From assembly GCA_024613925.1 (NCBI GenBank), contig GCA_024613925.1_4713.1: 64,000 nt of DNA; one strand, written 5' to 3'. Made by a program: the position numbers and the translations under genes. The notes under the pieces were generated by a model, which saw only the letters and a list, made by a program, of their open reading frames with translations, searched no databases and was not told the DNA's origin. Below, piece after piece: positions 2,264 to 33,653 of the stretch (its first letter is position 1; each line of letters starts with the position of its first letter). Source of the DNA: a phage.

Positions 2264-2295
2264 CCCTCTCCCTTCCCTTACGGGTTGGGAGAGGG
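2264..2295 (-). terminator. GC-rich hairpin CCCTCTCCC..GGGAGAGGG downstream of gene 2318..3655
   Basis: 9-bp stem plus 3-bp extension, loop TTAC; weak U tract; member of repeated hairpin family. Confidence 0.4.
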
Positions 2296-10532: not shown

Positions 10533-10553
10533 AACAAAATAGCATGAGCATAA

Positions 10554-17538: not shown

Positions 17539-18858
17539 TTACGCGACGACAGAGTCGAGTTTCGCTGACACTTTGAACAGATCGTTGTTGATAACCGTAG
17601 ACAGTGTTTTCTGAACCTGCTCCTGCTTCACGGCTTGATGAACGTCAGGACGCAATGCGATGGTAATGAGCTCCATAATGGTACGATTATCGTTGAGAGT
17701 TTTCAAGATCTTGTCGATTTCCTTTATTGCGTCTAATGTCGATACGCGGATATCCTGAGGCAAATCGCGATCTTTAAGACGCCCAACCAACTCTTGTTTT
17801 AATTTCGCAACACGATCCTTATCACTGGTATACGTGGAATAGGTGAAGTCATACTGCGTTATTGTTTTCAGGTTGACGAAAAGAGCCACCGTGCCCATTG
17901 TACCCAGGAATGGGTTAATTAACGATAAACCGGCGATTGCACTAATAACTGACAATGAACATATGGCATATTGCGCCCAAACACTAACGCGATCCCTTAC
18001 TGATATTCTTCCGAAGTGTTTATACATCTTCGCTAGTGTGTCTGCCATTGCAGCCCCACCACCATGACGGGTGACGAATTGATCAGCAGCAAATTCCGCT
18101 GAGGTATCAGAATACCGTCCGGTATGCGTTGCGACACGTGCCTGTTCTTCTTTATTGCTTATATACACGGTATACCAAGTGGCAACATCGCTTGATTCCG
18201 CAATGGCGTTGACATCAACCGTTGTGCCCATCGCATCGTTTAATGATTTCGCGAGAGTGATCTTTTTCTCTTTATCCGTTGTTTGCAGTAGTTCGCGTGC
18301 GACGGTTGCGAGAGAAAAATCGGTCTTAGCGGATTCGGCGATAAATTCCAGGAAAGTAAAAGCATGCCCAACCTCGTGCATGATAAGCGCTGCTTTGTTT
18401 TCTGGAATAAATTCCGTGGTACGAATAAATCCGTCGGTTACTAATACACGGATAGTGATTTTCTCGAATGCGCCTTTCACCCTACCGTTGACAAGATCGA
18501 CCACACCGACGACTTCGTCGATGTTTTTGCTTAACTGTTTAAAGTCGCTGTTTCGGTAGAACTGTTTACGCCATTCCTCAATAAGCACGTTGTTTTTTGT
18601 AATATCCGGAGTAATACAGAAACAGTTAACTTCACTCATGTTCGGTATTACTTCTGTCTGGATAGTCAACCCAGTGTATTTGCGTATTAAATCGGTTAAT
18701 ATTTTACCACCGATATATTTTACCTTTTCCTCATAGCTGGTAAGATTATCCATTGTTTTGAAGAACTCGGTCATTTCCTTGAACATGGAACCATCTTGAA
18801 ACTTGATGGCCTCCATCGTTAATTCGTCATGACCATACACGCGTTGTAGTAATGACAT
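17539..18858 (-). CDS. Putative Zn-metallopeptidase (HEXXH) with hydrophobic C-terminal segment
   Basis: ALIMHEVGHAF contains HEXXH; hydrophobic stretch WAQYAICSLSVISAIAGLSLINPFLGTMGTVALFV. Confidence 0.55.
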   Translation of the reverse strand: MSLLQRVYGHDELTMEAIKFQDGSMFKEMTEFFKTMDNLTSYEEKVKYIGGKILTDLIRKYTGLTIQTEVIPNMSEVNCFCITPDITKNNVLIEEWRKQFYRNSDFKQLSKNIDEVVGVVDLVNGRVKGAFEKITIRVLVTDGFIRTTEFIPENKAALIMHEVGHAFTFLEFIAESAKTDFSLATVARELLQTTDKEKKITLAKSLNDAMGTTVDVNAIAESSDVATWYTVYISNKEEQARVATHTGRYSDTSAEFAADQFVTRHGGGAAMADTLAKMYKHFGRISVRDRVSVWAQYAICSLSVISAIAGLSLINPFLGTMGTVALFVNLKTITQYDFTYSTYTSDKDRVAKLKQELVGRLKDRDLPQDIRVSTLDAIKEIDKILKTLNDNRTIMELITIALRPDVHQAVKQEQVQKTLSTVINNDLFKVSAKLDSVVA

Positions 18859-19080: not shown

Positions 19081-20580
19081 ATGAGCGAACAAGAACGAAA
19101 ACCTAAGAAGAAACTGCTCGGTATTCAATGTCGACACATCAGCTATAACGAAGCGAACGATGGCAGCAAGAACGACCTCATGATCGCAAAAGAGATCATG
19201 TTCTTTGATGATAATACGCAAGCGACGAACCTTCGCTTCTTCGAGAATTACAAACGTCCGTTTTGGGTGACGGTAGAGAGTAAACGCAAGAACAAATATA
19301 AAAAGGAAAGCGAGAAGCTATCGCATGTGCGTCGCTACGATGTCCGTCAAAGTGAACTGGTTGAAAAGATCAGTTCGGTGCTTTATAAAAGACGTGCTGA
19401 TGATAACACCCGTTTACAACAGCTTGCACGGAGTCCCTACCTCTATGGCACGGACGTTAGCGCCAGCTGTTATTTAAAAACCCAATACAATACAAAATGG
19501 CCGGAATACGTCGATAAATTACCTGCTTCCATTGCCTGTTTCGATATCGAAACCGACGTTGTCCACGGGCACGGTAAGATCGTCTGTATGTCTATTACAA
19601 TGGGATACAATGCGATACTTTGCTATACCAAGGACTTCGTTGGTCATATTCCGAATGCGATTGAGAAAACCCATGAGAAGATTCGATATTACCTGGCCGA
19701 ACGTCTGAACACCAAAGAAGATCCGCACGCATTTGAAAAATACCAATACGATGTTCGAATCGTAGAAAGTCCAGCACAAGCGGTCATCCAATGCATGCAG
19801 AAGGTTCACGAATGGCAACCGGATTATCTCCTTGGCTGGAATATCGCGTTCGATATTCCGCGTATGCTCCAGGCACTGAACGAGGAAGGGTATCGTCCCG
19901 AGGATGTTTTCTCCGATCCTCGTGTACCACCTAAATACCGTATTGCTCGCTGGGTGCCACCGAAGACCGACAAGGTATCTGCTTCAGGTCGTAAAACCAA
20001 CCTTACCCTTGAGCAAACCTGGCCGATGTTTTATACGATGGCCACGTATCAGGTTATGGATGCGATGTGTGGTTATAAGTTCGTTCGTTTAGGAAGACCG
20101 GATGAGGGACGCTATTCACTCGATGCGGTATTAGAGCGAAATAAATGCCATACGAAATTAAAAGCAATTCCTGGTACAGAAGGGTTCACAGAGCTCGCCT
20201 GGCACGAAGAGATGCAAACGAACCATCAAATCGACTACGGCGTATATAACCTTTGGGATAACCAAGGCATCGAGGCGTTGGACCAGAAAACAAAAGACTA
20301 TTCGATGACCATCCCTATTCGTTTGGCGGCGTCGGATTTGAAAGATTTCAGTTCTAACCCTAAACGTATCTGCGATAAACTTTTCTTCGTTTATCTTAAC
20401 CGTGGGGAAGTCATGGGATGCACCGCCGACGATATGACTCAGGAAGAAGATAAGTGGGTTATCTCACGAACCGGACATATCGTCACATTACCATGCGATC
20501 TCATGGCGGACAACGGCATTCATCTCTTCTGGGATATGCCGAACCTGAGAAGTTATATTCGATTATTTGTTGCGGATTAA
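19081..20580 (+). CDS. Family-B (T4 gp43-like) DNA polymerase N-terminal plus 3'-5' exonuclease fragment
   Basis: Exo I CFDIETD, Exo II GWNIAFDIP (cf. T4 GWNIEGFDVPYI), Exo III block NHQIDYGVYNLWD (cf. T4 NHQRYISYNIIDV); GHIVTLP then FWD at residue 485 resembles the pre-motif-A region; ORF stops before any fingers, motif B/C or thumb. Confidence 0.7.
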   Translation: MSEQERKPKKKLLGIQCRHISYNEANDGSKNDLMIAKEIMFFDDNTQATNLRFFENYKRPFWVTVESKRKNKYKKESEKLSHVRRYDVRQSELVEKISSVLYKRRADDNTRLQQLARSPYLYGTDVSASCYLKTQYNTKWPEYVDKLPASIACFDIETDVVHGHGKIVCMSITMGYNAILCYTKDFVGHIPNAIEKTHEKIRYYLAERLNTKEDPHAFEKYQYDVRIVESPAQAVIQCMQKVHEWQPDYLLGWNIAFDIPRMLQALNEEGYRPEDVFSDPRVPPKYRIARWVPPKTDKVSASGRKTNLTLEQTWPMFYTMATYQVMDAMCGYKFVRLGRPDEGRYSLDAVLERNKCHTKLKAIPGTEGFTELAWHEEMQTNHQIDYGVYNLWDNQGIEALDQKTKDYSMTIPIRLAASDLKDFSSNPKRICDKLFFVYLNRGEVMGCTADDMTQEEDKWVISRTGHIVTLPCDLMADNGIHLFWDMPNLRSYIRLFVAD

Positions 20581-20648
20581 GAAATAAATCGGTTAAGTAT
20601 TACTACTCTGTTCGATGGTTATGGGATAACCAAATGGAGTAGTCATGC

Positions 20649-21755
20649 ATGAATAAATGGTATTTACCAGAGGCACGTTTTAAATACTACGCAACTGACG
20701 ATGGTCTTTTCCATTCAACTGGAGAGGCTGTTCCGGTTACCGTTAAAGATGGTATCTCGTATGTCGAGATCGACTGGTATCGTGGTCTAGGTCTATATGA
20801 CGCCGGACTCGCTGTTATGTGTGCGTTGAGAGCGATAAACATACCAATCTACTTACTTGATCAAGCATATTCTCTTTACATTGACGGGAATCCTGAGAAT
20901 GTAAAACGTGAGAACCTGCTTTACCGTTTCAAAGGCGGTAGGTTGGAAGTACCTGGATGTCCCGGCTATTATTTCATCCCCTTCCATTCTCGTTATGCTA
21001 TTAACGAGGAAGGTTTGGTGATCAATGTCGAGACGGGGTTCGAAAAACGCTGGTCGCAAATGAAACCTAACAAGAAACAAAAGACCCATGGCGGTTACGT
21101 TTACCAACGTACGGTAAATGATAACGGATTCACATCCCAGCTTTATCAGCATCGTGCTATGGGTTACGTGTTTCTTGAATACGGTGCCGACGTTATGGAT
21201 AAGACAATAAACCATAAGAACGGCATCAAATGGGATAATCGTCCATGTAACATTGAGTGGGCAACGTATACGGACAATAATAAGCATGCGGTTGATAGCG
21301 GTCTTCGTACAGAAGGATTGCATCCTGTTAAGGTTAAGGATTACAACACCGGTGAAGTCAGGGTATTCCCTTCAATCGCTGCGTGTTGTGCTGCTTATCC
21401 ATGCTTGGAACGTAAACGTGTTTGGTATTGGATGACGCGTAAAACGAAATTCATGCCAGCCTGCAATCTGTATTTCAAAGAAGTTGACGATGATACCCCA
21501 TGGCCAGATTGGCAGATCGGACAGCCTCGTCGTCTTCAAGAATATACGATGCCTAACCCTATCGCAGCTATCGATAAACAAACTGGTAAACGTTATGTGT
21601 TTGCATCAATTGCTCACGCACAACGAGAGACAGGTGTTTCTAACGTGACTATCATGAAGTACTGTCGTAATAGGCTTACAGAAGGTCGTTCTCCATTCAT
21701 CTTCCGCTATTTTGAAGATGTTAGTTCGATGCCTGTAGGCCTTAACGACGCTTAA
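20649..21755 (+). CDS. HNH homing endonuclease (HNH_3 type)
   Basis: INHKNGIKWDNRPCNIEWATYTDNNKH matches the H-N-(DNR)-N-H signature; C-terminal G.RVFPSIA / GKRYVFASIAHA repeats resemble intron-encoded nuclease DNA-binding modules. Confidence 0.8.
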   Translation: MNKWYLPEARFKYYATDDGLFHSTGEAVPVTVKDGISYVEIDWYRGLGLYDAGLAVMCALRAINIPIYLLDQAYSLYIDGNPENVKRENLLYRFKGGRLEVPGCPGYYFIPFHSRYAINEEGLVINVETGFEKRWSQMKPNKKQKTHGGYVYQRTVNDNGFTSQLYQHRAMGYVFLEYGADVMDKTINHKNGIKWDNRPCNIEWATYTDNNKHAVDSGLRTEGLHPVKVKDYNTGEVRVFPSIAACCAAYPCLERKRVWYWMTRKTKFMPACNLYFKEVDDDTPWPDWQIGQPRRLQEYTMPNPIAAIDKQTGKRYVFASIAHAQRETGVSNVTIMKYCRNRLTEGRSPFIFRYFEDVSSMPVGLNDA

Positions 21756-21789
21756 CCGATTTTAGGTCCCGGTGGGGATAACGCCCCCA

Positions 21790-22114
21790 CCGGATTCCCG
21801 TTAATTGCTGGAACCCCCTAAAGCCTTTCGACCACAGCGGATTCTGAAAAGAAAAACGTCAAGGTTAGAAAACAGAAAGGATGTTCGTAAGGAAACGATA
21901 AATGGGCAATCAGCAGCGAAGCTTCTAAGGGCCTGCATTAGCAATAAGACCTAAGAAGAACGTTCAACGACTATCCGGTCGCGCGGAGTAAGGGACAAGC
22001 GTCCCCAAACACGGGAGGGGTGCGAAAGCATTCCATGATATAGTCTGCTCCTAAGTGAAAGCTTAGGCGGGTGGTACACACCGGCATAAGAGTTGCGTCT
22101 TATGTGGACAATGG
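21790..22114 (+). ncRNA. Group I intron-like ribozyme core
   Basis: Q-like AATCAGCAGC (21908-21917), R-like GTTCAACGACTA (21962-21973) and S-like GATATAGTC (22037-22045) in the canonical order; P7 GACTA/TAGTC pairing; P9-like hairpins CCTAAG..CTTAGG and CATAAGA..TCTTATG. Confidence 0.5.
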
Positions 22115-22369
22115 CTTGACATTTCTTCAAGTTATCCCAACGGGCAGATACTGCTCAATCTATCCAGAGCATGTGTTTTTCGTGAGCTCTCGCGCATTGA
22201 GGGCGTCTCTGACTATCAATTCAGGAAGTTAGGTATCAACTTTATTACCGGAGGTAAAACGAACGCTGTAGACTTCTGTAGAATCGTTTATAAAGCGCCA
22301 TCGATGTTTGAACTCTTAGAACATTTCGATGCGACGCGTCCAAAAGAGGAAGCGCGGACCATCGAATGA
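22115..22369 (+). CDS. Putative 3' exon (start-less ORF) of the interrupted polymerase gene
   Basis: Frame with no stop from 22067 to TGA at 22367-22369 and no start codon; translation ..QWLDISSSYPNGQILLNLSR.. contains a motif-A-like DxxSxYP; a terminator hairpin follows. Confidence 0.3.
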   Translation, partial: LDISSSYPNGQILLNLSRACVFRELSRIEGVSDYQFRKLGINFITGGKTNAVDFCRIVYKAPSMFELLEHFDATRPKEEARTIE

Positions 22370-22417
22370 TTCAAGTAAGTTGATCCTCGTTTAACAAAAA
22401 AGAAAACGCATGCGAAG

Positions 22418-22449
22418 CCCCTCCCCCTGGCGGAAGCCGGAGGGAGGGG
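22418..22449. terminator. GC-rich hairpin between convergent transcription units
   Basis: CCCCTCCC..GGGAGGGG stem followed by TTT; lies between the putative 3' exon and minus gene 22456..22941. Confidence 0.4.
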
Positions 22450-22455
22450 TGGGGT

Positions 22456-22941
22456 TTATGCGTGTTCGTTGCCAACCTTCACTTTGTAATCAGCGTCGGT
22501 TAAGAAAATAGACAGGAATCCATGTTCTTTGCAAATCTGACTAAGGATGTCAGCAATGATTTCGTTGATCATCGGTTTGTTTGCAAGGGCATAGATGTAC
22601 CCGGGTGTAAAAGAAAGTGCATGATTGATCATAGGCTCATGAGAAGCCAAGATAAGGATCACGTGATGCTTCCCATCGTCGGTAACGACCGCTTGCGTAG
22701 ACACGAAGAAATCAGTGAAGCAGCAGCGATCACAGGCTTTAGGTATATACAAATCACCCAGAGCTTCGTCGCGTGCTTTTATGTGTGTTTCAGGGGTGAT
22801 GCTGCTAAGTTGATCTTCAGCGAGATCCAAGACATCCTCAATCGTTTTAAGAATAGCGTTGCGGAAATCCTCGCGGTAGAATGGGATGATATCACGATCG
22901 TTCATGTAATCGCCGGATTCGATAGTAAAGTTGATGTTCAT
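22456..22941 (-). CDS. Small hypothetical protein (array member 1)
   Basis: 161-aa ORF with AGGAG ribosome-binding site. Confidence 0.5.
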   Translation of the reverse strand: MNINFTIESGDYMNDRDIIPFYREDFRNAILKTIEDVLDLAEDQLSSITPETHIKARDEALGDLYIPKACDRCCFTDFFVSTQAVVTDDGKHHVILILASHEPMINHALSFTPGYIYALANKPMINEIIADILSQICKEHGFLSIFLTDADYKVKVGNEHA

Positions 22942-23011
22942 TGAATGCTCCTAGTGGTTATGTCGATTGATTGATGTATTGATTTATGTTTGAAGGTGTT
23001 GTTCACCTTCG

Positions 23012-23479
23012 TTAGATATCATCATCCGTGGTGCCGTAGGACATATGCTGAATTAATTTTCTCGGCTCGATGAAAATACGACATGTGATAAACACATCGG
23101 GATCGTATTGCTCCACGCAACGTCCGAAGGCTTGTTTTGCGGCTTGACGCACCGATGTTATTTCCTGATCGTTCATCGCATTATCGAATTCGATGTTGAT
23201 CGTGATTTTATCGGGAAATAAATAGATAAAGTAATCGCCACTGATACCACCATCATCAAAGTGACGTTCATTGTAACACTGGACGAGCTTACCTTCACGT
23301 TCTTTCTGATACCATCCAAGGATACTATTAAGACCTCTGTCCACGCATTCGAATGCTTGAGTAATAACATCCTCAACGACGGAGGCTGCCGTGGGACCAT
23401 TGAATAGACGATCTAAGCGCTTTTTCATCGATTTGTCGGTTTTCATGTTCATTGTTTCTTTTCCTGTTATAGTCAACAT
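23012..23479 (-). CDS. Small hypothetical protein (array member 2)
   Basis: 155-aa ORF. Confidence 0.5.
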   Translation of the reverse strand: MLTITGKETMNMKTDKSMKKRLDRLFNGPTAASVVEDVITQAFECVDRGLNSILGWYQKEREGKLVQCYNERHFDDGGISGDYFIYLFPDKITINIEFDNAMNDQEITSVRQAAKQAFGRCVEQYDPDVFITCRIFIEPRKLIQHMSYGTTDDDI

Positions 23480-23529
23480 ATAGCCCTTCCCCGGCCTTGA
23501 CGGCTAGGGAAGGGTATGTTTACGTGTAA

Positions 23530-23925
23530 TTACTCTTTGACGTCAGTTGTCGTTTCGACATGCTTCTCACTACTGACGTACCAGAGCAGGTACGTTGGGA
23601 AAAGATTGACCTCTAAGCTAAATGGGATATTGTATTTCTCTTCCATTTTACAGAGATGTTCTTTAAGTAAATTTCTCGCGTCTCTGTCACCACGAACAGA
23701 GTGCCAGTCTAGTTCTTTGTTCTCCTTTACCAGGACCTCTACGATGATACGTTGCTCGTGAACCTCGGTTTTCACAGTGAAAAGTAAATCGCTGCTATCA
23801 AAACGGGTAAAACGAATGTATGAGCCAGGTGTTTTTTCTTGTTTAATAATATCGATCATGGTAGAAATGCGCGGATGATCGATGTTGTCGTTAACAGCTT
23901 TAACGATGGATTCTACAATGCTCAT
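23530..23925 (-). CDS. Small hypothetical protein (array member 3)
   Basis: 131-aa ORF. Confidence 0.5.
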   Translation of the reverse strand: MSIVESIVKAVNDNIDHPRISTMIDIIKQEKTPGSYIRFTRFDSSDLLFTVKTEVHEQRIIVEVLVKENKELDWHSVRGDRDARNLLKEHLCKMEEKYNIPFSLEVNLFPTYLLWYVSSEKHVETTTDVKE

Positions 23926-24084
23926 TTTTTTTATCCTTAATGTTATCGGTTTAGAAATATTACTTAAATATTGTTTTATTTATCGATGGTTGTTACCCAT
24001 GATGGGAAAGCCGGATGGAAACAGAGCGTGAACGTAACCTTCGTATCGTATTTAATCGCTGAACTTTATCTTTGATAGACATGA

Positions 24085-24543
24085 TTACCCCTTAGCTCCT
24101 TCTTCGTCTGGAGAGTATTCCATCGTGTAGAATTCATAACCATCGGAAAACTTGAGTGTTAATGTAATAGGGAAATCGCACGGCATAGCTGATTTCGTAA
24201 ATGCGTTATTAGCAACATCAGCCAACCGACGTATAGCATCAACCCCGCTGACGCTGAATGGTAGTTGTATGTTGATAAGGATACGATGCTTGTAAACATA
24301 GAAAACAACGGTACTGTCGAGATAAACGCTATGGAACGGTATTGTTGGGATGCGTTCCACAATGGTAAAATACGTCCCGTCATTATCGCTATGCCCCATC
24401 GACCAAATATCGGATTTGCGTAGATTTTGTTTGAGGGATTCGATACTTCGAGTGACGGTCTCAGCAACAGGCGTGACGTAAGTGTCTCTATGCGAGTCGA
24501 AAAGTTCGTTGACGTTAGATTCGAATGAATACATTGTTGCCAT
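24085..24543 (-). CDS. Small hypothetical protein (array member 4)
   Basis: 152-aa ORF, GAGG ribosome-binding site. Confidence 0.5.
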   Translation of the reverse strand: MATMYSFESNVNELFDSHRDTYVTPVAETVTRSIESLKQNLRKSDIWSMGHSDNDGTYFTIVERIPTIPFHSVYLDSTVVFYVYKHRILINIQLPFSVSGVDAIRRLADVANNAFTKSAMPCDFPITLTLKFSDGYEFYTMEYSPDEEGAKG

Positions 24544-24609
24544 TTTCTACCTCAATAGTTTAACCGGCACGTGTCCCCACCTAACAAGGGACACGATATC
24601 GTTGATTAA

Positions 24610-25110
24610 TTACTCTTCTGTGTTTTCATTGTCAGGATCGTAGTGGAATTCGAACAGCCCTGAACCGTCGTGTCCGTTGATTGTTAGTATAACGGGCATA
24701 TCGAATCCTCGGACGCGCGAATGAAAACACTGTGCTAATTTGAGTTTGGCGTATGCCACTATTTCATTGACGGCAATGCACGACTCACCTGTTATACTCA
24801 GTATAACGTCGATACTAACAATGTTGTCGTGCAACGCAAAACGCCAACGATCGATACGAGTATTATCTTTAGCGGTTGTCTCGTTTACGAGATAGACTTT
24901 ATCATCAACCGACAAAGCGGGACTCCAGCAACGTTCGTTTATTAAATTCGCCTGGAGTTTTAGTATCGTCTGATCGATAATATCCCAACACGTAACCAGC
25001 GTGACGTCAGGCACTGAGTAGAGAAGGGCGAGCACTTTATCCTTTATTTTAGGTGTCTCTGCAGGACGTCCGCAAATACCATGCATTTCAACTTTCTTAT
25101 TCATATTCAC
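24610..25110 (-). CDS. Small hypothetical protein (array member 5)
   Basis: 166-aa ORF. Confidence 0.5.
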   Translation of the reverse strand: MNMNKKVEMHGICGRPAETPKIKDKVLALLYSVPDVTLVTCWDIIDQTILKLQANLINERCWSPALSVDDKVYLVNETTAKDNTRIDRWRFALHDNIVSIDVILSITGESCIAVNEIVAYAKLKLAQCFHSRVRGFDMPVILTINGHDGSGLFEFHYDPDNENTEE

Positions 25111-25148
25111 TTCTTTCTTAATCTAAATGTTAGTTGGGGATGGGATGC

Positions 25149-25781
25149 TTACATGCTTTCTAGCATATTGACGATCATGGAACCCATACCGAAACTCGGT
25201 CTCTCACCGATATACTCAGCAAGTTGACGGTGTACGTCTTTTGGATTTCCTTCTTCACCATCGGCATCGATGTAGACCGAAAAAGAAACCGAATCGGAAT
25301 CCACGCTGATAACCAGACGACGTTCATTGCGTTCCTTGAGCGTGTCGACGATAGATGCTTTCAGTACCGGGATCGCATTCATCGCGTGCAAGATATCTCC
25401 ATCGGGTTTCGGCAGATCGATCTTTTCTTTCAGGTCGATATTGATGTTGGTTACAATTGGGTTGAGGTCGACCTTGACATAATCGTTGGGATACATGCGA
25501 ATAATCGCACGATCGATATCTGAACCGTAAAAGTCAACACGTAGCTTTAACACTTCTTTGTTTGGATCCATGTTTTCATCCATACCCGCCTGCAAGAAAC
25601 GTTCTACGTTATCCAGTTCACGATAAACTGACGCTTCGATTTCTTTCAGATAGTTGGCTGCGGTTTCATGTTCCTTACGTAGCTCGTCTTTAAGGAGCTG
25701 TACGGTGGTTTCACTGGAACGAATGCTGTTCGCGAATTGGGTAATTGACATATTGAATTCCTTAAATTCTCTTGAGTTCAA
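25149..25781 (-). CDS. Small hypothetical protein (array member 6)
   Basis: 210-aa ORF, AGGAA ribosome-binding site. Confidence 0.5.
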   Translation of the reverse strand: MNSREFKEFNMSITQFANSIRSSETTVQLLKDELRKEHETAANYLKEIEASVYRELDNVERFLQAGMDENMDPNKEVLKLRVDFYGSDIDRAIIRMYPNDYVKVDLNPIVTNINIDLKEKIDLPKPDGDILHAMNAIPVLKASIVDTLKERNERRLVISVDSDSVSFSVYIDADGEEGNPKDVHRQLAEYIGERPSFGMGSMIVNMLESM

Positions 25782-25799
25782 TTAATGATGAAAAGCTGT

Positions 25800-25827
25800 A
25801 AAAAAAAAAGGTGGGGCGAACCCCACC
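25800..25827 (-). terminator. Rho-independent terminator (minus strand)
   Basis: GGTGGGG cgaa CCCCACC hairpin followed on the minus strand by a 10-nt U run; directly after the stop of 25853..26278. Confidence 0.65.
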
Positions 25828-25852
25828 AAAACGTCAGACACACGCAGGAAAA

Positions 25853-26278
25853 TTAATTCAGTGATGCATATAAGGCATAACGACTGTAGATCTCAACCGC
25901 CGGTCCGTTATGGGTTAACAGACCATCCTGGCTGTAATACTGGAAAAATGAATAACGTTTGTCGAAGTGATAAACAAAAGCAATGTCTTTGCCGTCAAAA
26001 CCCATGACGCGCGGCCTGTTTTTATCTAGCAACGCTTTGACTTTTAACAGTGTTGCCGCACGCGCTTTAACATTAGGGATTAATCCATCACAATCGATAT
26101 AAACCGTGTAACCTGTTTCAGATGTTGCGACGGTTGTATTGCGATTGACGCGAAAGATTTTTGTTTTGTACGTATCATCTTCAAGAATTGGGTTTTGTTT
26201 TTCGTATTTTCGTTTACGTAGAAATTCTACAACGGTGATATAGTTAGCGGTAATATGCCCGGTTATAGCTTGTAACAT
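25853..26278 (-). CDS. Small hypothetical protein (array member 7)
   Basis: 141-aa ORF; shares its 5' leader with gene 54730..55047. Confidence 0.5.
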   Translation of the reverse strand: MLQAITGHITANYITVVEFLRKRKYEKQNPILEDDTYKTKIFRVNRNTTVATSETGYTVYIDCDGLIPNVKARAATLLKVKALLDKNRPRVMGFDGKDIAFVYHFDKRYSFFQYYSQDGLLTHNGPAVEIYSRYALYASLN

Positions 26279-26289
26279 CTCGACATCCT

Positions 26290-26317
26290 TTTATATTGGA
26301 TTGATTGCAATTGTCTT
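26290..26317 (-). promoter_or_regulatory. Sigma70-like promoter candidate (AAGACA, 16-nt spacer, TATAAA) with conserved leader
   Basis: About 30 nt including the TATAAA and AAAGGATG ribosome-binding site identical to the leader of gene 54730..55047. Confidence 0.3.
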
Positions 26318-26449
26318 AAATAGATGATAAGATATTTTGCTCTTATCATTAAGGTAACGCTTACGCGTCGCGTTCATGATGTCATGCATCATGAAGGTAA
26401 TGTAGTCGTGAAATAAACTGCGTTAACACGAAATAAAACAGCATAGAAC

Positions 26450-26480
26450 CCTCTCCCAACCCGTAAGGGAAGGGAGAGGG
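26450..26480 (-). terminator. GC-rich hairpin, inverted copy of the 2264..2295 element
   Basis: CCCTCTCCCAACCCGTAAGGGAAGGGAGAGGG preceded by GCATAGAA. Confidence 0.4.
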
Positions 26481-26493
26481 AATATTAAAATTG

Positions 26494-26949
26494 TCACTTT
26501 ATATTGAACGCTTTTCGCAACGCATTAAGAACTAAATTAATTTCTTGCGCTTGTAACTTTAATCCCTGTGCTGAGCCATCAAACCCAAGCCAACGCCATA
26601 CAAGGCATTTTACAGGTTTGTTGTTATCGTCGATACTATATGTGATCTCCAGTGTACTTTGATACGCGTAGTCACCATGTGTTTTCAGCGACTGATTGAA
26701 ATAAATATCAAATGCTTCTTCTATAGCCTGTTTACCGCGATCGTTACAAACAAACGCGATGTATCCGTCGGAATATCCAACTTCCTCTGGATGTCCTTGG
26801 CAGGAGAAAATACTGATGGCGTCTTGCTGAGCAAGATTGAACACCGTGAAGAAATCACCAAATAAAGGATCGAGATTTAATGCGTTGTTATCGATAAGGT
26901 TCCTTACCGCTTTACGGTATTCTCCCAGACTATTGTTCGCTGTAAACAT
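26494..26949 (-). CDS. Small hypothetical protein (array member 8)
   Basis: 151-aa ORF. Confidence 0.5.
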   Translation of the reverse strand: MFTANNSLGEYRKAVRNLIDNNALNLDPLFGDFFTVFNLAQQDAISIFSCQGHPEEVGYSDGYIAFVCNDRGKQAIEEAFDIYFNQSLKTHGDYAYQSTLEITYSIDDNNKPVKCLVWRWLGFDGSAQGLKLQAQEINLVLNALRKAFNIK

Positions 26950-26959
26950 TCTTTTACCT

Positions 26960-27361
26960 TTAAATATCGTGGATAGCGGTGCCGTTTAGCCAACAATACA
27001 ACTTAATGCGACACGGATAGCGATTCGTAGCCAAGAGCAGTTCGTCGCGTAAACGCTGGTAGATTTCATCCTGGTGTTCACGATCAATTGGGTAATCAGC
27101 CCAACATTCGATCATGACGTCACCATTCGTCAGAATCGTCGTACGCATCCTGTCCTGGATACGGCGGTCTTTCCCGGCATTAGGGAAATACATTCCTTCA
27201 GTACGAATAAGGTCGCCGCAGGGCATGACTAACCATTCGTTCGTTTTGCCGGTATTCTTATAATCCATTACGGCTTGCATTGCGGTGTCAACGCTAAAAG
27301 AAACATAATTCCAAACGGATGTCCAACGATAGATTGCGGGTTGTTCGAGTGTTTCGTTCAT
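26960..27361 (-). CDS. Small hypothetical protein (array member 9)
   Basis: 133-aa ORF; possible TTGAAT-17-TAAAAA promoter upstream. Confidence 0.5.
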   Translation of the reverse strand: MNETLEQPAIYRWTSVWNYVSFSVDTAMQAVMDYKNTGKTNEWLVMPCGDLIRTEGMYFPNAGKDRRIQDRMRTTILTNGDVMIECWADYPIDREHQDEIYQRLRDELLLATNRYPCRIKLYCWLNGTAIHDI

Positions 27362-27575
27362 GGAGTGCTTGTCCTATTTTTTATTTTCTGCACAGGATAA
27401 ATTCAACGGCATAAAGCCCTTCCCTGCCCTTATATGGGGCGGGAAGAGTTTATGACCGCAATGAGAATCTCTCACGACAAGCTCACGACGATTATCGCAT
27501 CACCCCGCGAGTGAGGGAGATCAGGATCACCTCCTACGTCGTAACGACAGCAATCCCGTTACGTCGCCTTAGACG

Positions 27576-28202
27576 TTATGCAAAGCGACGCATGTAACCT
27601 GCCAGATAGTTACGCGTATCGAAGTAGGCAATTTCAGGAATTGCGATATTAAGGTCGATAGCGCGGATTTCAACTTGGCGACGGCTTTCATCATAGATCG
27701 CATCCATCAGACGCAGTACTGTCAGGAAAGCCATGCGTGTATGGTAGTCCAGCGGCATGTTATCGATACCGCGATACAGATAACGGTTTGCATTAAATGC
27801 CCCTTCGCTGTTATCTTTCCAGATCTTCAGAATATCAGCAAAGGCGGTGCGGAAAACCTCAGGATTATCCACATCCAGTAACGCACGGAAAGCAGACATT
27901 AAAGACCGCTGATGACGGATCAACGACTGCGGCGTTTGCGGCATGGTCGGACCCATTTCTTCCGCATATTTCTGGAACGGGGCAACCAGGGTTGCGGCAC
28001 GAGAAGCCACGATAGAAACAGCAGGCGATTCTTTCACCGCTGGTTTCGCAGGCTTTTCTTCAACAACGGTTTCCTTCTTCTCAACAGCGACCGTTTCCGG
28101 CTGTGCTACAACATCACCAACCGGAGCATCTGCAATGGTGGTTTCTACCGCAGTAATCTCCTCGTCCATTTTTGCAGAACGTTGGTCTTTATTCTTGCTC
28201 AT
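27576..28202 (-). CDS. Hypothetical protein with Lys/Glu/Val-rich low-complexity N-terminus
   Basis: 208-aa ORF. Confidence 0.5.
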   Translation of the reverse strand: MSKNKDQRSAKMDEEITAVETTIADAPVGDVVAQPETVAVEKKETVVEEKPAKPAVKESPAVSIVASRAATLVAPFQKYAEEMGPTMPQTPQSLIRHQRSLMSAFRALLDVDNPEVFRTAFADILKIWKDNSEGAFNANRYLYRGIDNMPLDYHTRMAFLTVLRLMDAIYDESRRQVEIRAIDLNIAIPEIAYFDTRNYLAGYMRRFA

Positions 28203-28227: not shown

Positions 28228-29529
28228 TTAACTAATATAAAGTTCAGGATCGTAAGGCGCTAACGATACACTGGCGTTATGCATTGCTTTCATCATAGTG
28301 TTCATGAAAACGTTGTTTACACCGGTGATCTCTGCCCCGATCGCATCTGGGGTTGGAGCCATCGCGTTACCGCAACAGGTAGCACAGTATTCCAATGGGC
28401 CTGCTTTACAACGTTGAGGATCACGTAACTTGATGGTCTGTCCTTCCAAGGAAGCGAGTAATTCAGCATCAATAAGTTTAAGCGCCGCGCCGTCGATCAT
28501 GTAACGGCCGACAAGCAGCTTATCTTTGATGTGGTCGCGGTTTACCGTGAACAGAATATGTTCGTGGGTACCGCAGTCGTCCATCGTGATTTTAAGGTTC
28601 TGTGTCGCACGTTGCGATTCTTTCGCCGTCTGTCCAGCTAAAGCGGTCAACGCACCACGTGAGAACGAACCAGCACGTGCGCTGTTGTTGTACTCCGCCC
28701 AATGGTCGACACGCATCCCTTCAGCCAGGCTGTGTGTGATAACGTTACGTTTACCGGGGTCAACGAAGTCGGCTTCAACCCCCATCATGATGTGCGTTTT
28801 CTTTCGAGTATTACCGAAACTCTTGCCTGGGTTAATATAGAACCCTTCCGATTCATCGCCCTTAAAGGATTCCTTATCCATTTTGGTTAACGTGGCTTCG
28901 AGTTTGATCAGTTCTTCAGGCGTGAACTTACCTTCCTCTTGTAAGCGTGCCAACTCTTTATCACGATAGGCAATAATATCATCATCGACCGTTAACGCCT
29001 TATCGCTCATCGATGGGACAATTAAACGGTTGATGGCGGTTAGCGCACTGATATTGTTGGTGAATTTCTTCACTTCGCTTGCGTACAACGGACCAATTGG
29101 ACGTTCGTTAGGATCGGGTATTCCCTCTTCAGGATCGTCCGCTACGCGTGGCGCAATCAGTGACTCCAGTGTACCGCTGGTTAACCGTCCTGCCTGATAT
29201 TCAATCTGAATACCGAAAGCATCATAAAGGACGTACATATTGAACAGAGCTTCGCCGAAGGTTGTGGTGGTTGTGTTCTTAACCGACGGTAGATCGCCAG
29301 GTGCGAGCTCCAATGGCTCCCAGAAACTCAACAAGGGTTTTGTTGGCTCGGTTTCCCACCGGTGTTCTTCACCGTCGATGGTAACCGTAACGACGTTACC
29401 TTGACGACGTAATTTAGGCTGATACTTCTCAGCGCCACCTTCCGTAAAAGCAAATGCGTCGTTAATCCATTCAAGATAACGGTAGTGCCCTTCACGCATC
29501 GCGTAAAGGAAATATTCACGAGGTGTCAT
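28228..29529 (-). CDS. Hypothetical protein with C-terminal Cys cluster (CKAGPLEYCATCCG)
   Basis: 433-aa ORF; no family assignable by eye. Confidence 0.55.
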   Translation of the reverse strand: MTPREYFLYAMREGHYRYLEWINDAFAFTEGGAEKYQPKLRRQGNVVTVTIDGEEHRWETEPTKPLLSFWEPLELAPGDLPSVKNTTTTTFGEALFNMYVLYDAFGIQIEYQAGRLTSGTLESLIAPRVADDPEEGIPDPNERPIGPLYASEVKKFTNNISALTAINRLIVPSMSDKALTVDDDIIAYRDKELARLQEEGKFTPEELIKLEATLTKMDKESFKGDESEGFYINPGKSFGNTRKKTHIMMGVEADFVDPGKRNVITHSLAEGMRVDHWAEYNNSARAGSFSRGALTALAGQTAKESQRATQNLKITMDDCGTHEHILFTVNRDHIKDKLLVGRYMIDGAALKLIDAELLASLEGQTIKLRDPQRCKAGPLEYCATCCGNAMAPTPDAIGAEITGVNNVFMNTMMKAMHNASVSLAPYDPELYIS

Positions 29530-33611: not shown

Positions 33612-33653
33612 CATAACCCTCTCCCTTCCCTTACGGGTTGGGAGAGGGCTTAT
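33612..33653. terminator. Bidirectional hairpin between convergent genes
   Basis: CATAACCCTCTCCC...GGGAGAGGGCTTATG extended stem, same core as the 2264 and 26450 elements. Confidence 0.5.

Follow-up and report, generated by a model that had tools for sequence, protein, structure and literature searches.

The internal proteins of phage T4 are small, variable and non-essential products of a polymorphic locus; some of them are packaged in the head and injected, and at least one counteracts restriction. In T4-type phages more generally, hyperplastic regions with promoter early stem-loop (PeSL) cassettes hold runs of small orphan genes between conserved core blocks, and these genes are gained, lost and replaced between close relatives, with breakpoints at repeated stem-loop motifs in the spacers (PMC2839356, PMC4122927). 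Another kind of cluster has been described in chimalliviruses, where the PF12699 proteins (gp53-58 of Goslar and gp92-97 of phiKZ) and the DUF7941 paralogs are lineage-specific, encoded in clusters among virion genes, and partly recovered in virions (bioRxiv 10.64898/2026.04.21.720040). The locus analyzed here, positions 22,456 to 27,361 of a 64,000-nucleotide (nt) stretch of phage DNA (contig GCA_024613925.1_4713.1 of assembly GCA_024613925.1, referred to below as the window), invites comparison with each of these systems. It consists of nine consecutive minus-strand open reading frames (ORFs) located between an intron-split DNA polymerase gene and an operon coding for a capsid decorator and a virion RNA polymerase (RNAP) subunit.

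The region is a variable accessory-gene island, and its centre is a tandem array of a lineage-restricted family of ~150-aa proteins. Positions 22000-27800 are 91.8% identical at the nucleotide level to Escherichia phage vB_EcoM_Goslar over 78% of their length, the remainder being indels, and on this similarity the source is assigned to the Goslar-like chimalliviruses, nucleus-forming jumbo phages of Escherichia coli. At the matching locus, Goslar is annotated with seven hypothetical genes, gp70-gp76; no paper discussing these genes was found in the literature.

Composition of the array and its paralog family

The nine minus-strand ORFs of 131-210 aa that made up the original prediction are all present at their listed coordinates, two of them with starts that had probably been placed too far upstream. 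For o23012 (23012..23452, 146 aa, ortholog of Goslar gp71), the start is most likely Met10 at 23452 and not the listed ATG at 23479, because that ATG belongs to a CTATATG motif abutting a hairpin and the corresponding database genes start at Met10. For o25149 (25149..25751, strongly acidic, ortholog of Goslar gp74), the ORF itself extends to a TTG at 25781, and the start is most likely Met11 at 25751, since this position has an AAGGA ribosome-binding site and yields a protein of 200 aa, the length of gp74.

All nine ORFs are real genes, as the pairwise ratio of nonsynonymous to synonymous substitution rates (dN/dS) is below 1 for every one of them when its counterparts in six related genomes are used for comparison, and each of the seven Goslar orthologs, gp70 to gp76, has yielded peptides in liquid chromatography-tandem mass spectrometry (bioRxiv 10.64898/2026.04.21.720040). 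The destruction of one gene copy by deletion, the splitting of another in the relative L003, and the highly variable copy number could be taken as signs of filler, with ORFs that are in decay or have lost their function and serve no role under selection. This view is largely refuted by the selection and peptide data, dN/dS being well below 1 in each case, and by the reading frames, which are intact across many genomes, so that it can be considered very improbable.

The hints of distant paralogy in the original prediction covered the whole run, with o23012, o24085, o24610 and o25853 given as examples. Direct BLASTP comparison among the ORFs produced one meaningful pair, o24085 (24085..24543, 152 aa, ortholog of Goslar gp72) and o24610 (24610..25110, 164-166 aa with the start at either the GTG at 25110 or the ATG at 25104, ortholog of Goslar gp73), which are 21% identical over 140 aa (E = 3e-5) and are aligned by hhalign with 91.8% probability over 142 columns. 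Ten related array loci were collected and their genes clustered, the relatives supplying intermediate sequences. An iterated hidden Markov model search seeded with o24085 and o24610 gathered o23012 and several genes found only in the relatives, as well as o23530 (23530..23925, 131 aa, absent from Goslar) with an E-value of 0.002, and profile-profile comparison joined clusters 0, 1, 27, 17 (its N-terminal half) and 29/32/106 at 88-99.8% probability. The o23012 cluster matched a family profile that excluded this cluster and the one nearest to it with 93% probability (E = 3e-7) over 128 co-linear columns; its score was 47.4, compared to 12.5±2.3 for a null of column-shuffled alignments, from which one alignment with an artefactual score of ~133 for every query had been excluded. 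The score of o23530 was 24.1 against the full family profile, compared to a null of 11.5±1.9 (z = 6.5), and z was 2.9 with the reduced profile. The other five ORFs, o25853, o26960, o26494, o25149 and o22456, scored against the family profile like the column-shuffled null (z between 0.1 and 1.8).

A full-length co-linear profile match is thus seen for o24610, o24085 and o23012, is probable for o23530, and is absent for the remaining five ORFs. Judged by these profile comparisons, the first three proteins form one α/β family of ~150 aa, o23530 is a probable divergent member of this gp71/72/73 tandem family, and the family occupies one contiguous block, o24610-o24085-o23530-o23012. The proposed paralogy therefore stands for three of the four ORFs named as examples, whose profile scores lie beyond the null, and can probably be extended to o23530, which had not been named; it finds no sequence signal in o25853, and its extension over all nine ORFs overreaches, as for four or five of them no relationship to the rest can be detected. 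The block also includes the scar of a fifth copy. Within the 159-nt spacer 23926-24084, the segment 23989..24082 (minus strand) is a remnant of a deleted 254-aa family gene, in which a TTAA microhomology marks the out-of-frame junction between the first 31 nt (MSIKDKVQRL) and the last ~70 nt. The deletion removed ~640 nt relative to L005 and L009, two relatives that keep the 254-aa gene in place.

The five ORFs outside the family appear, from the profile scores, to be different genes that share the island with it. The first gene of the array, o26960 (26960..27361, 133 aa, ortholog of Goslar gp76; z = 0.2 against the family), is found in all examined relatives that cover its position and has a dN/dS of 0.08-0.14. 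The next one, o26494 (26494..26949, 151 aa), lies on a ~500-nt segment that Goslar lacks and only some of the relatives have; its homologs make up just four clusters, all in Goslar-like arrays, and its PHROG matches are weak and of unknown function. The product of o25853 (25853..26278, 141 aa, ortholog of Goslar gp75) is basic, with a pI of 9.4, and nearly invariant in its C-terminal two-thirds.

The AlphaFold2 model of o24085, built from an alignment of 40 family sequences, has a predicted local distance difference test score (pLDDT) of 83 and a predicted template modeling score (pTM) of 0.77 and shows an α-α-β4-α-β2 arrangement. The loose sequence core recognized in the original prediction (I.I.I.L, A..A..AF and P.I.LTL) maps onto strand β4, helix α3 and strand β5 of this model. 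In a Foldseek search of the viral structure models in BFVD, the only match of the model was Goslar gp73 (E = 1.4e-10, TM-score 0.71), and the assignment of this fold is based on the o24085 model and, via BFVD, on gp73. The solved structure nearest to the family is the type III secretion substrate-specificity-switch (T3S4) domain of PscP (PDB 5cuk); none of the structural matches was a confident one, and none pointed to a function. Sequence searches against PDB chains with the family profiles and with single ORFs gave no match; a control, a neighboring virion-like gene that is not among the 28 modelled virion proteins, was also blank, which makes these negatives uninformative on virion membership. 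The conserved positions of the family are L41, W47, I88/I90, F115, Y143, a D-x-P before β5, and an N-terminal motif S-(I/M)-K-x-x-V-x-x-L, in which, with clusters weighted equally, S is conserved at 87%, K at 97%, and an aliphatic residue in the V position at 100%. The remnant retains this motif, o24085 has S-F-E in its place, and o23530 has a partial version, MSIVESIV. No catalytic-like set was found among the conserved family columns, which comprise core hydrophobic residues and these motifs.

A model was also obtained for o25853, from a shallow alignment of 15 sequences with 55-93% identity. The best of the five models has a pLDDT of 84.8 and an α-(α)-β4-α-β3-α arrangement, and two others are near 53. 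Its top-ranking BFVD match is again Goslar gp73, with a probability of 0.91 over 138 columns, an E-value of just 1.7e-3 and a TM-score of only 0.32; unrelated BFVD matches have similar E-values. The link is hard to ascribe to chance, because this best match comes from the same 5-kb array, and the model is suggestive of o25853 being a very remote family member. Such a relationship, with the order of elements shared by the two models, would fit the origin of all or most of the nine ORFs from a single ancestral gene, the outer members having diverged past sequence recognition, and a strand-helix-strand-strand pattern can be discerned by eye in o26960, o25149, o22456 and o26494. A single ancestor is nonetheless doubtful: the null-like profile scores include that of o25853 (z = 0.1), β-α-β units are very common, and the genes differ in their evolutionary regimes, o25853 being strongly conserved.

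Turnover of the island and its hairpin-bearing spacers

A profile search among 1.84 billion representative proteins gave 18 matches, four of which, all long, are repeat-rich proteins; every genuine match belongs to the clusters of Goslar-like arrays. A search of 5.8 billion proteins returned 131 matches, all of them on Goslar-like contigs in E. coli or Salmonella assemblies or in metagenomes. A tblastn search with o24085 against 50,697 phage records found Goslar only, a scan of viral contigs identified three close relatives, and megablast against complete E. coli genomes gave no match. Across these collections, the family is restricted to Goslar-like phages.

Comparison with related phages, which had been proposed as a check for presence/absence variation, revealed plenty of it. 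The whole array ranges from 7 to ~14 genes, and the number of family copies is 3 in Goslar, 4 plus the scar here, and 7-9 in other relatives. The o23530 gene is duplicated in L002, and gene sizes are the sole indication of a second copy in L012. The array of L010 is a mosaic: its o22456-type gene shows 100% identity to the one in L008, and its o25853-type, o24610-type and cluster-37 genes share only 47-58% identity with any other copy, a pattern that implies recent exchange of single-gene cassettes. Breakpoints of indels recur in the spacers, three of them at hairpins (26457, 23514 and 22999-23035). The family changes through duplications, internal deletions and the gain or loss of cassettes, and the breakpoints lie in spacers that bear hairpins.

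The family also evolves fast. Its dN/dS values span 0.14-0.80 (0.14-0.37 for o24610, 0.37-0.80 for o24085 and 0.21-0.38 for o23012), compared to 0.06-0.24 in the rest of the array and 0.01-0.07 in the most conserved genes of the flanks, for example, that of the virion RNAP subunit. Protein identity to the relatives falls to 41-76% in the family versus 98-99% for the virion RNAP subunit. On these estimates, the family evolves several-fold to tens-of-fold faster than the adjoining core genes.

The spacers between the array ORFs are 10-215 nt long, and five of the eight internal ones contain GC-rich hairpins, which bears out the original remark that hairpins are frequent there; additional hairpins lie just upstream and just downstream of the array. 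In the direction of transcription, the first is a GC-rich hairpin with CTTTATG at 27410..27448 (hairpin 27417-27448, minus strand), ~50 nt upstream of o26960, which is palindromic (CATAAA…TTTATG) and reads identically on both strands. The spacer after o26494 carries the 32-nt hairpin CCCTCTCCCTTCCCTTACGGGTTGGGAGAGGG followed by TTCTATG (26442..26480, minus strand); this hairpin has three identical copies in the window (2264-2295, 26449-26480 and 33617-33648), and the breakpoint of the o26494 indel relative to Goslar, 26457, falls inside it. The element after o25853, GGTGGGG-TTCG-CCCCACC followed by T10 (25800..25827, minus strand), is the only canonical intrinsic terminator with a T-run among the array hairpins and is annotated in Goslar as well. 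A GC-rich hairpin follows o24610 (24571..24594, minus strand), and the extra family copy of the relatives, cluster 27, is inserted ~12 nt downstream of it, at 24553/24559. Another one (hairpin 23484-23514, with CTATATG in 23477..23514, minus strand) precedes the real start of o23012 by ~25 nt and has a recurrent indel breakpoint at 23514. The hairpin after o23012 (22992..23010, minus strand) marks the place where relatives carry one to two extra family genes, with breakpoints at 22999-23035. Finally, the GC-rich hairpin at 22418..22449, between the convergent o22456 (minus strand) and DNA polymerase exon 2 (plus strand), is likely a bidirectional terminator. An Rfam scan of positions 20400-27700 detected no RNA family within the array.

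Three of the array hairpins directly precede the motif (C/T)TNTATG, and the window contains 7 occurrences of the pattern GGGNTHTATG, compared to 0.9 expected. The core of the phiKZ late promoter is TATG, with transcription starting at the G (PMC4666361); the paper on the promoter structure of the phiKZ non-virion RNAP mentions no DNA hairpin. The hairpin-adjacent TATG may be part of a promoter or simply the base of a stem, since many of the boundary hairpins are CATA-stem-loop-TATG palindromes that look alike on both strands and pair the TATG with an upstream CATA. Similar GC-rich palindromic hairpins are dispersed at gene boundaries of the window, for example, at 10549/10591, 23477/23518, 27410/27454, 33612/33654 and 43078/43132.

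The resemblance to the T4-type hyperplastic regions is one of layout, turnover and repeated stem-loops at the borders of variable genes. In PeSLs, the stem-loop is coupled to an early promoter of the sigma-70 type, whereas sigma-70-like sites are not enriched here (11 found in the scan versus 14.1±3.3 expected), the phage has its own RNA polymerases, and TATG stands beside the hairpin. Further, recombination at the hairpins is deduced here from the positions of breakpoints only.

Virion content and candidate functions

The virion proteome of Goslar shows that the array is heterogeneous in this respect as well. Copies per virion are the published Table S4 estimates for purified virions, and proteins with 5 or more copies are classified in that study as virion-associated (bioRxiv 10.64898/2026.04.21.720040). 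Two of the seven orthologs exceed this value. The first is gp70, at ~166 copies (4 peptides, 37 spectra and 36.7% coverage), which corresponds to o22456 (22456..22941, 161 aa), the strongly acidic product of the last array gene, 97.5% identical to gp70; the second is gp74 (o25149), at ~8 copies, similar to the virion RNAP subunits. The remaining five are below it, with ~3.7 copies of gp71 (o23012), ~2.6 of gp76 (o26960), 0.54 of gp72 (o24085), 0.48 of gp75 (o25853) and 0.40 of gp73 (o24610). The other two ORFs, o23530 and o26494, have no Goslar orthologs. The main text of the preprint focuses on proteins with >200 copies and does not mention gp70-gp76 (bioRxiv 10.64898/2026.04.21.720040). From these figures, o22456 is most likely a virion-associated protein, and the paralog family is made during infection and is not a stoichiometric component of the virion. 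The array is thus functionally heterogeneous.

The same data bear on the possibility that the array encodes virion-packaged and possibly injected accessory proteins that act at the very start of infection, like the T4 internal proteins or the PF12699 inner-body paralogs of phiKZ and Goslar. The copy numbers of gp70, gp74, gp71 and gp76 speak in favor of it, as do the neighboring genes, with gp65, gp66, gp77 and gp78 all being virion proteins, and the existence of a packaged paralog cluster, gp53-58, in the same phage. However, the family members gp72 and gp73, together with gp75, are present at no more than ~0.5 copies, the level of the non-virion RNAP subunits. None of the nine ORFs has a Pfam match to PF12699 at E≤1 or any match to PF25613 (DUF7941). 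The family is also found in Goslar-like phages only, unlike these chimallivirus-wide proteins, and occurs in virions at a trace level, compared to tens to thousands of copies of the PF12699 and DUF7941 proteins. As for the T4 internal proteins, no capsid-targeting sequence or protease site was identified here, and packaging has been shown, in Goslar, only for the ortholog of the family-unrelated o22456 and, at a low level, for a few others. Packaging suits o22456 and perhaps o25149 far better than it suits the paralog family, and as an account of the array it has to be regarded as rather improbable.

According to the original prediction, arrays of this kind usually hold host-takeover or anti-defense proteins. 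Fast evolution, changes in copy number, and small acidic proteins are all traits that fit a role in conflict with the host. In its classical form, the proposal would have the virion RNAP, once injected, transcribe these genes right at the onset of infection. The products are small, mostly acidic, orphan, variable and fast-evolving, and such small, variable orphans are typical of the early accessory genes of many phages. On the other hand, the array is surrounded by virion genes and shares its strand with gp77 and gp78, several of its products are found in virions, and the hairpin-TATG elements at its junctions resemble the late promoter motif of phiKZ rather than the extended consensus of early promoters. 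A classical early takeover of the host is consequently a less likely reading, indeed an unlikely one.

Library searches were consistent with the original observation that none of the ORFs has a recognizable enzymatic motif: scans of the nine ORFs against Pfam, PHROGs, NCBIfam and PADLOC, the last of which covers defense proteins, produced nothing but sub-threshold noise. Pfam searches with the 254-aa relative and the other family members of the related phages likewise found nothing and hence offered no clue from fused domains.

The explanation that we favor, with moderate confidence, is a variable island with a tandem family of non-enzymatic binding proteins involved in host adaptation. Family members would be non-enzymatic binders; their conserved positions are core hydrophobics and a short N-terminal helix, and the rest of the sequence diverges freely. 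The conserved N-terminal helix would contact a common phage partner or a targeting route, and the variable body would engage host factors that differ between strains, such as defense or host-range determinants; copies could be gained, lost and swapped as hosts change. Expression, judging from the neighborhood of virion genes, would probably be middle or late and not early. A more specific version can be proposed with much less confidence and is improbable as a whole: the family members would be diversifying host-targeting binders, for example, inhibitors or decoys of variable defense or surface-associated factors of E. coli or Salmonella, the S-I-K helix would be a shared address tag that directs them into a route peculiar to chimalliviruses (such as packaging into the virion, the early infection vesicle, or import into the nucleus), and the hairpin-TATG palindromes would serve as cassettes, both recombinational and regulatory, that shuffle the copies and would be the equivalent of T4 PeSLs in a jumbo phage.

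Several points count against the favored explanation. The binding or host-conflict role rests solely on the evolutionary pattern and the absence of catalytic motifs, and the role of the N-terminal motif is speculation from its conservation. With dN/dS below 1 everywhere, the rapid change does not amount to a sign of positive selection, and a relaxation of constraint would give the same picture. The traces of gp72, gp73 and gp75 in virions equal the level of the non-virion RNAP subunits and are best read as carry-over, so that they show only expression. The middle or late timing is deduced from the neighborhood and from TATG motifs that are possibly just parts of palindromic hairpins.

Flanking genes and significance

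On the upstream side, the array adjoins gp77, gp78 and gp79, with the orthologs of gp77 (27576-28202) and gp78 (28228-29529), both on the minus strand, directly upstream. They are assigned from the 2026 Goslar virion preprint, in which gp77 is the capsid decorator, with ~430 copies per virion by mass spectrometry, gp78 is a virion RNAP subunit, and gp65/gp66 form a vertex-binding complex (bioRxiv 10.64898/2026.04.21.720040). Since gp77/gp78 and gp65/gp66 are virion proteins, the array sits among virion genes and on their strand. In GenBank, gp77 and gp78 are labelled as hypothetical, with merely a weak similarity to the RNAP beta subunit recorded for gp78. The gp77-like protein has an N-terminal region of ~70 residues rich in A, E, K, P and V, and its dN/dS, 0.13-0.23, is above that of the other core neighbors.

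On the polymerase side, the array is followed by the DNA polymerase exonuclease-domain gene (20581-22366, plus strand), split by a group I intron that carries an HNH/NUMOD endonuclease ORF (20649-21755). The intron is recognized by Rfam as Intron_gpI at 21742-22067 (73.4 bits, E = 1e-17) and is absent in the relatives L005 and L009; exon 2 (22115-22366, 84 aa) matches the C-terminal end of the 583-aa gene of L009, which is uninterrupted, with 100% identity. In some relatives, a 760-aa DUF7941 gene, a member of the chimallivirus virion filament family, directly follows the array, as in L005 (13839-16121) and L006 (6072-8147). This gene takes the place of polymerase exon 2 and the intron, and the island boundary is therefore variable, too. 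Farther away, at 17539-18858 (minus strand), a 439-aa gene similar to Goslar gp67, annotated there as 'weakly similar to putative virion structural protein', shares only 47-49% identity with the corresponding genes of Goslar, L003, L007 and L009 and 87.5% with that of L005, and the genes flanking it are 98-99% identical. From these identities, the pattern resembles the swap of an allele in a gene with a possible role in host recognition.

Variable small-gene islands are a familiar and fairly ordinary feature of large phage genomes, and the interest of this one is moderate, mainly because Goslar is an experimental model. The central tandem family is lineage-restricted, previously undescribed, and without an entry in Pfam or PHROGs, and Goslar gp70 is a virion protein that was detected in the published virion study but not discussed there. 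The corrected picture is of an array that is not uniform, in which the paralogs are only the four central genes, o23530 probably among them. Nucleus-forming jumbo phages of E. coli are studied with Goslar as the model, and many isolates of E. coli and Salmonella harbor persisting phages of the Goslar type. A block that varies in copy number among near-identical genomes is an obvious place in which to seek host-range or anti-defense determinants, and this one is small enough to be deleted or swapped.

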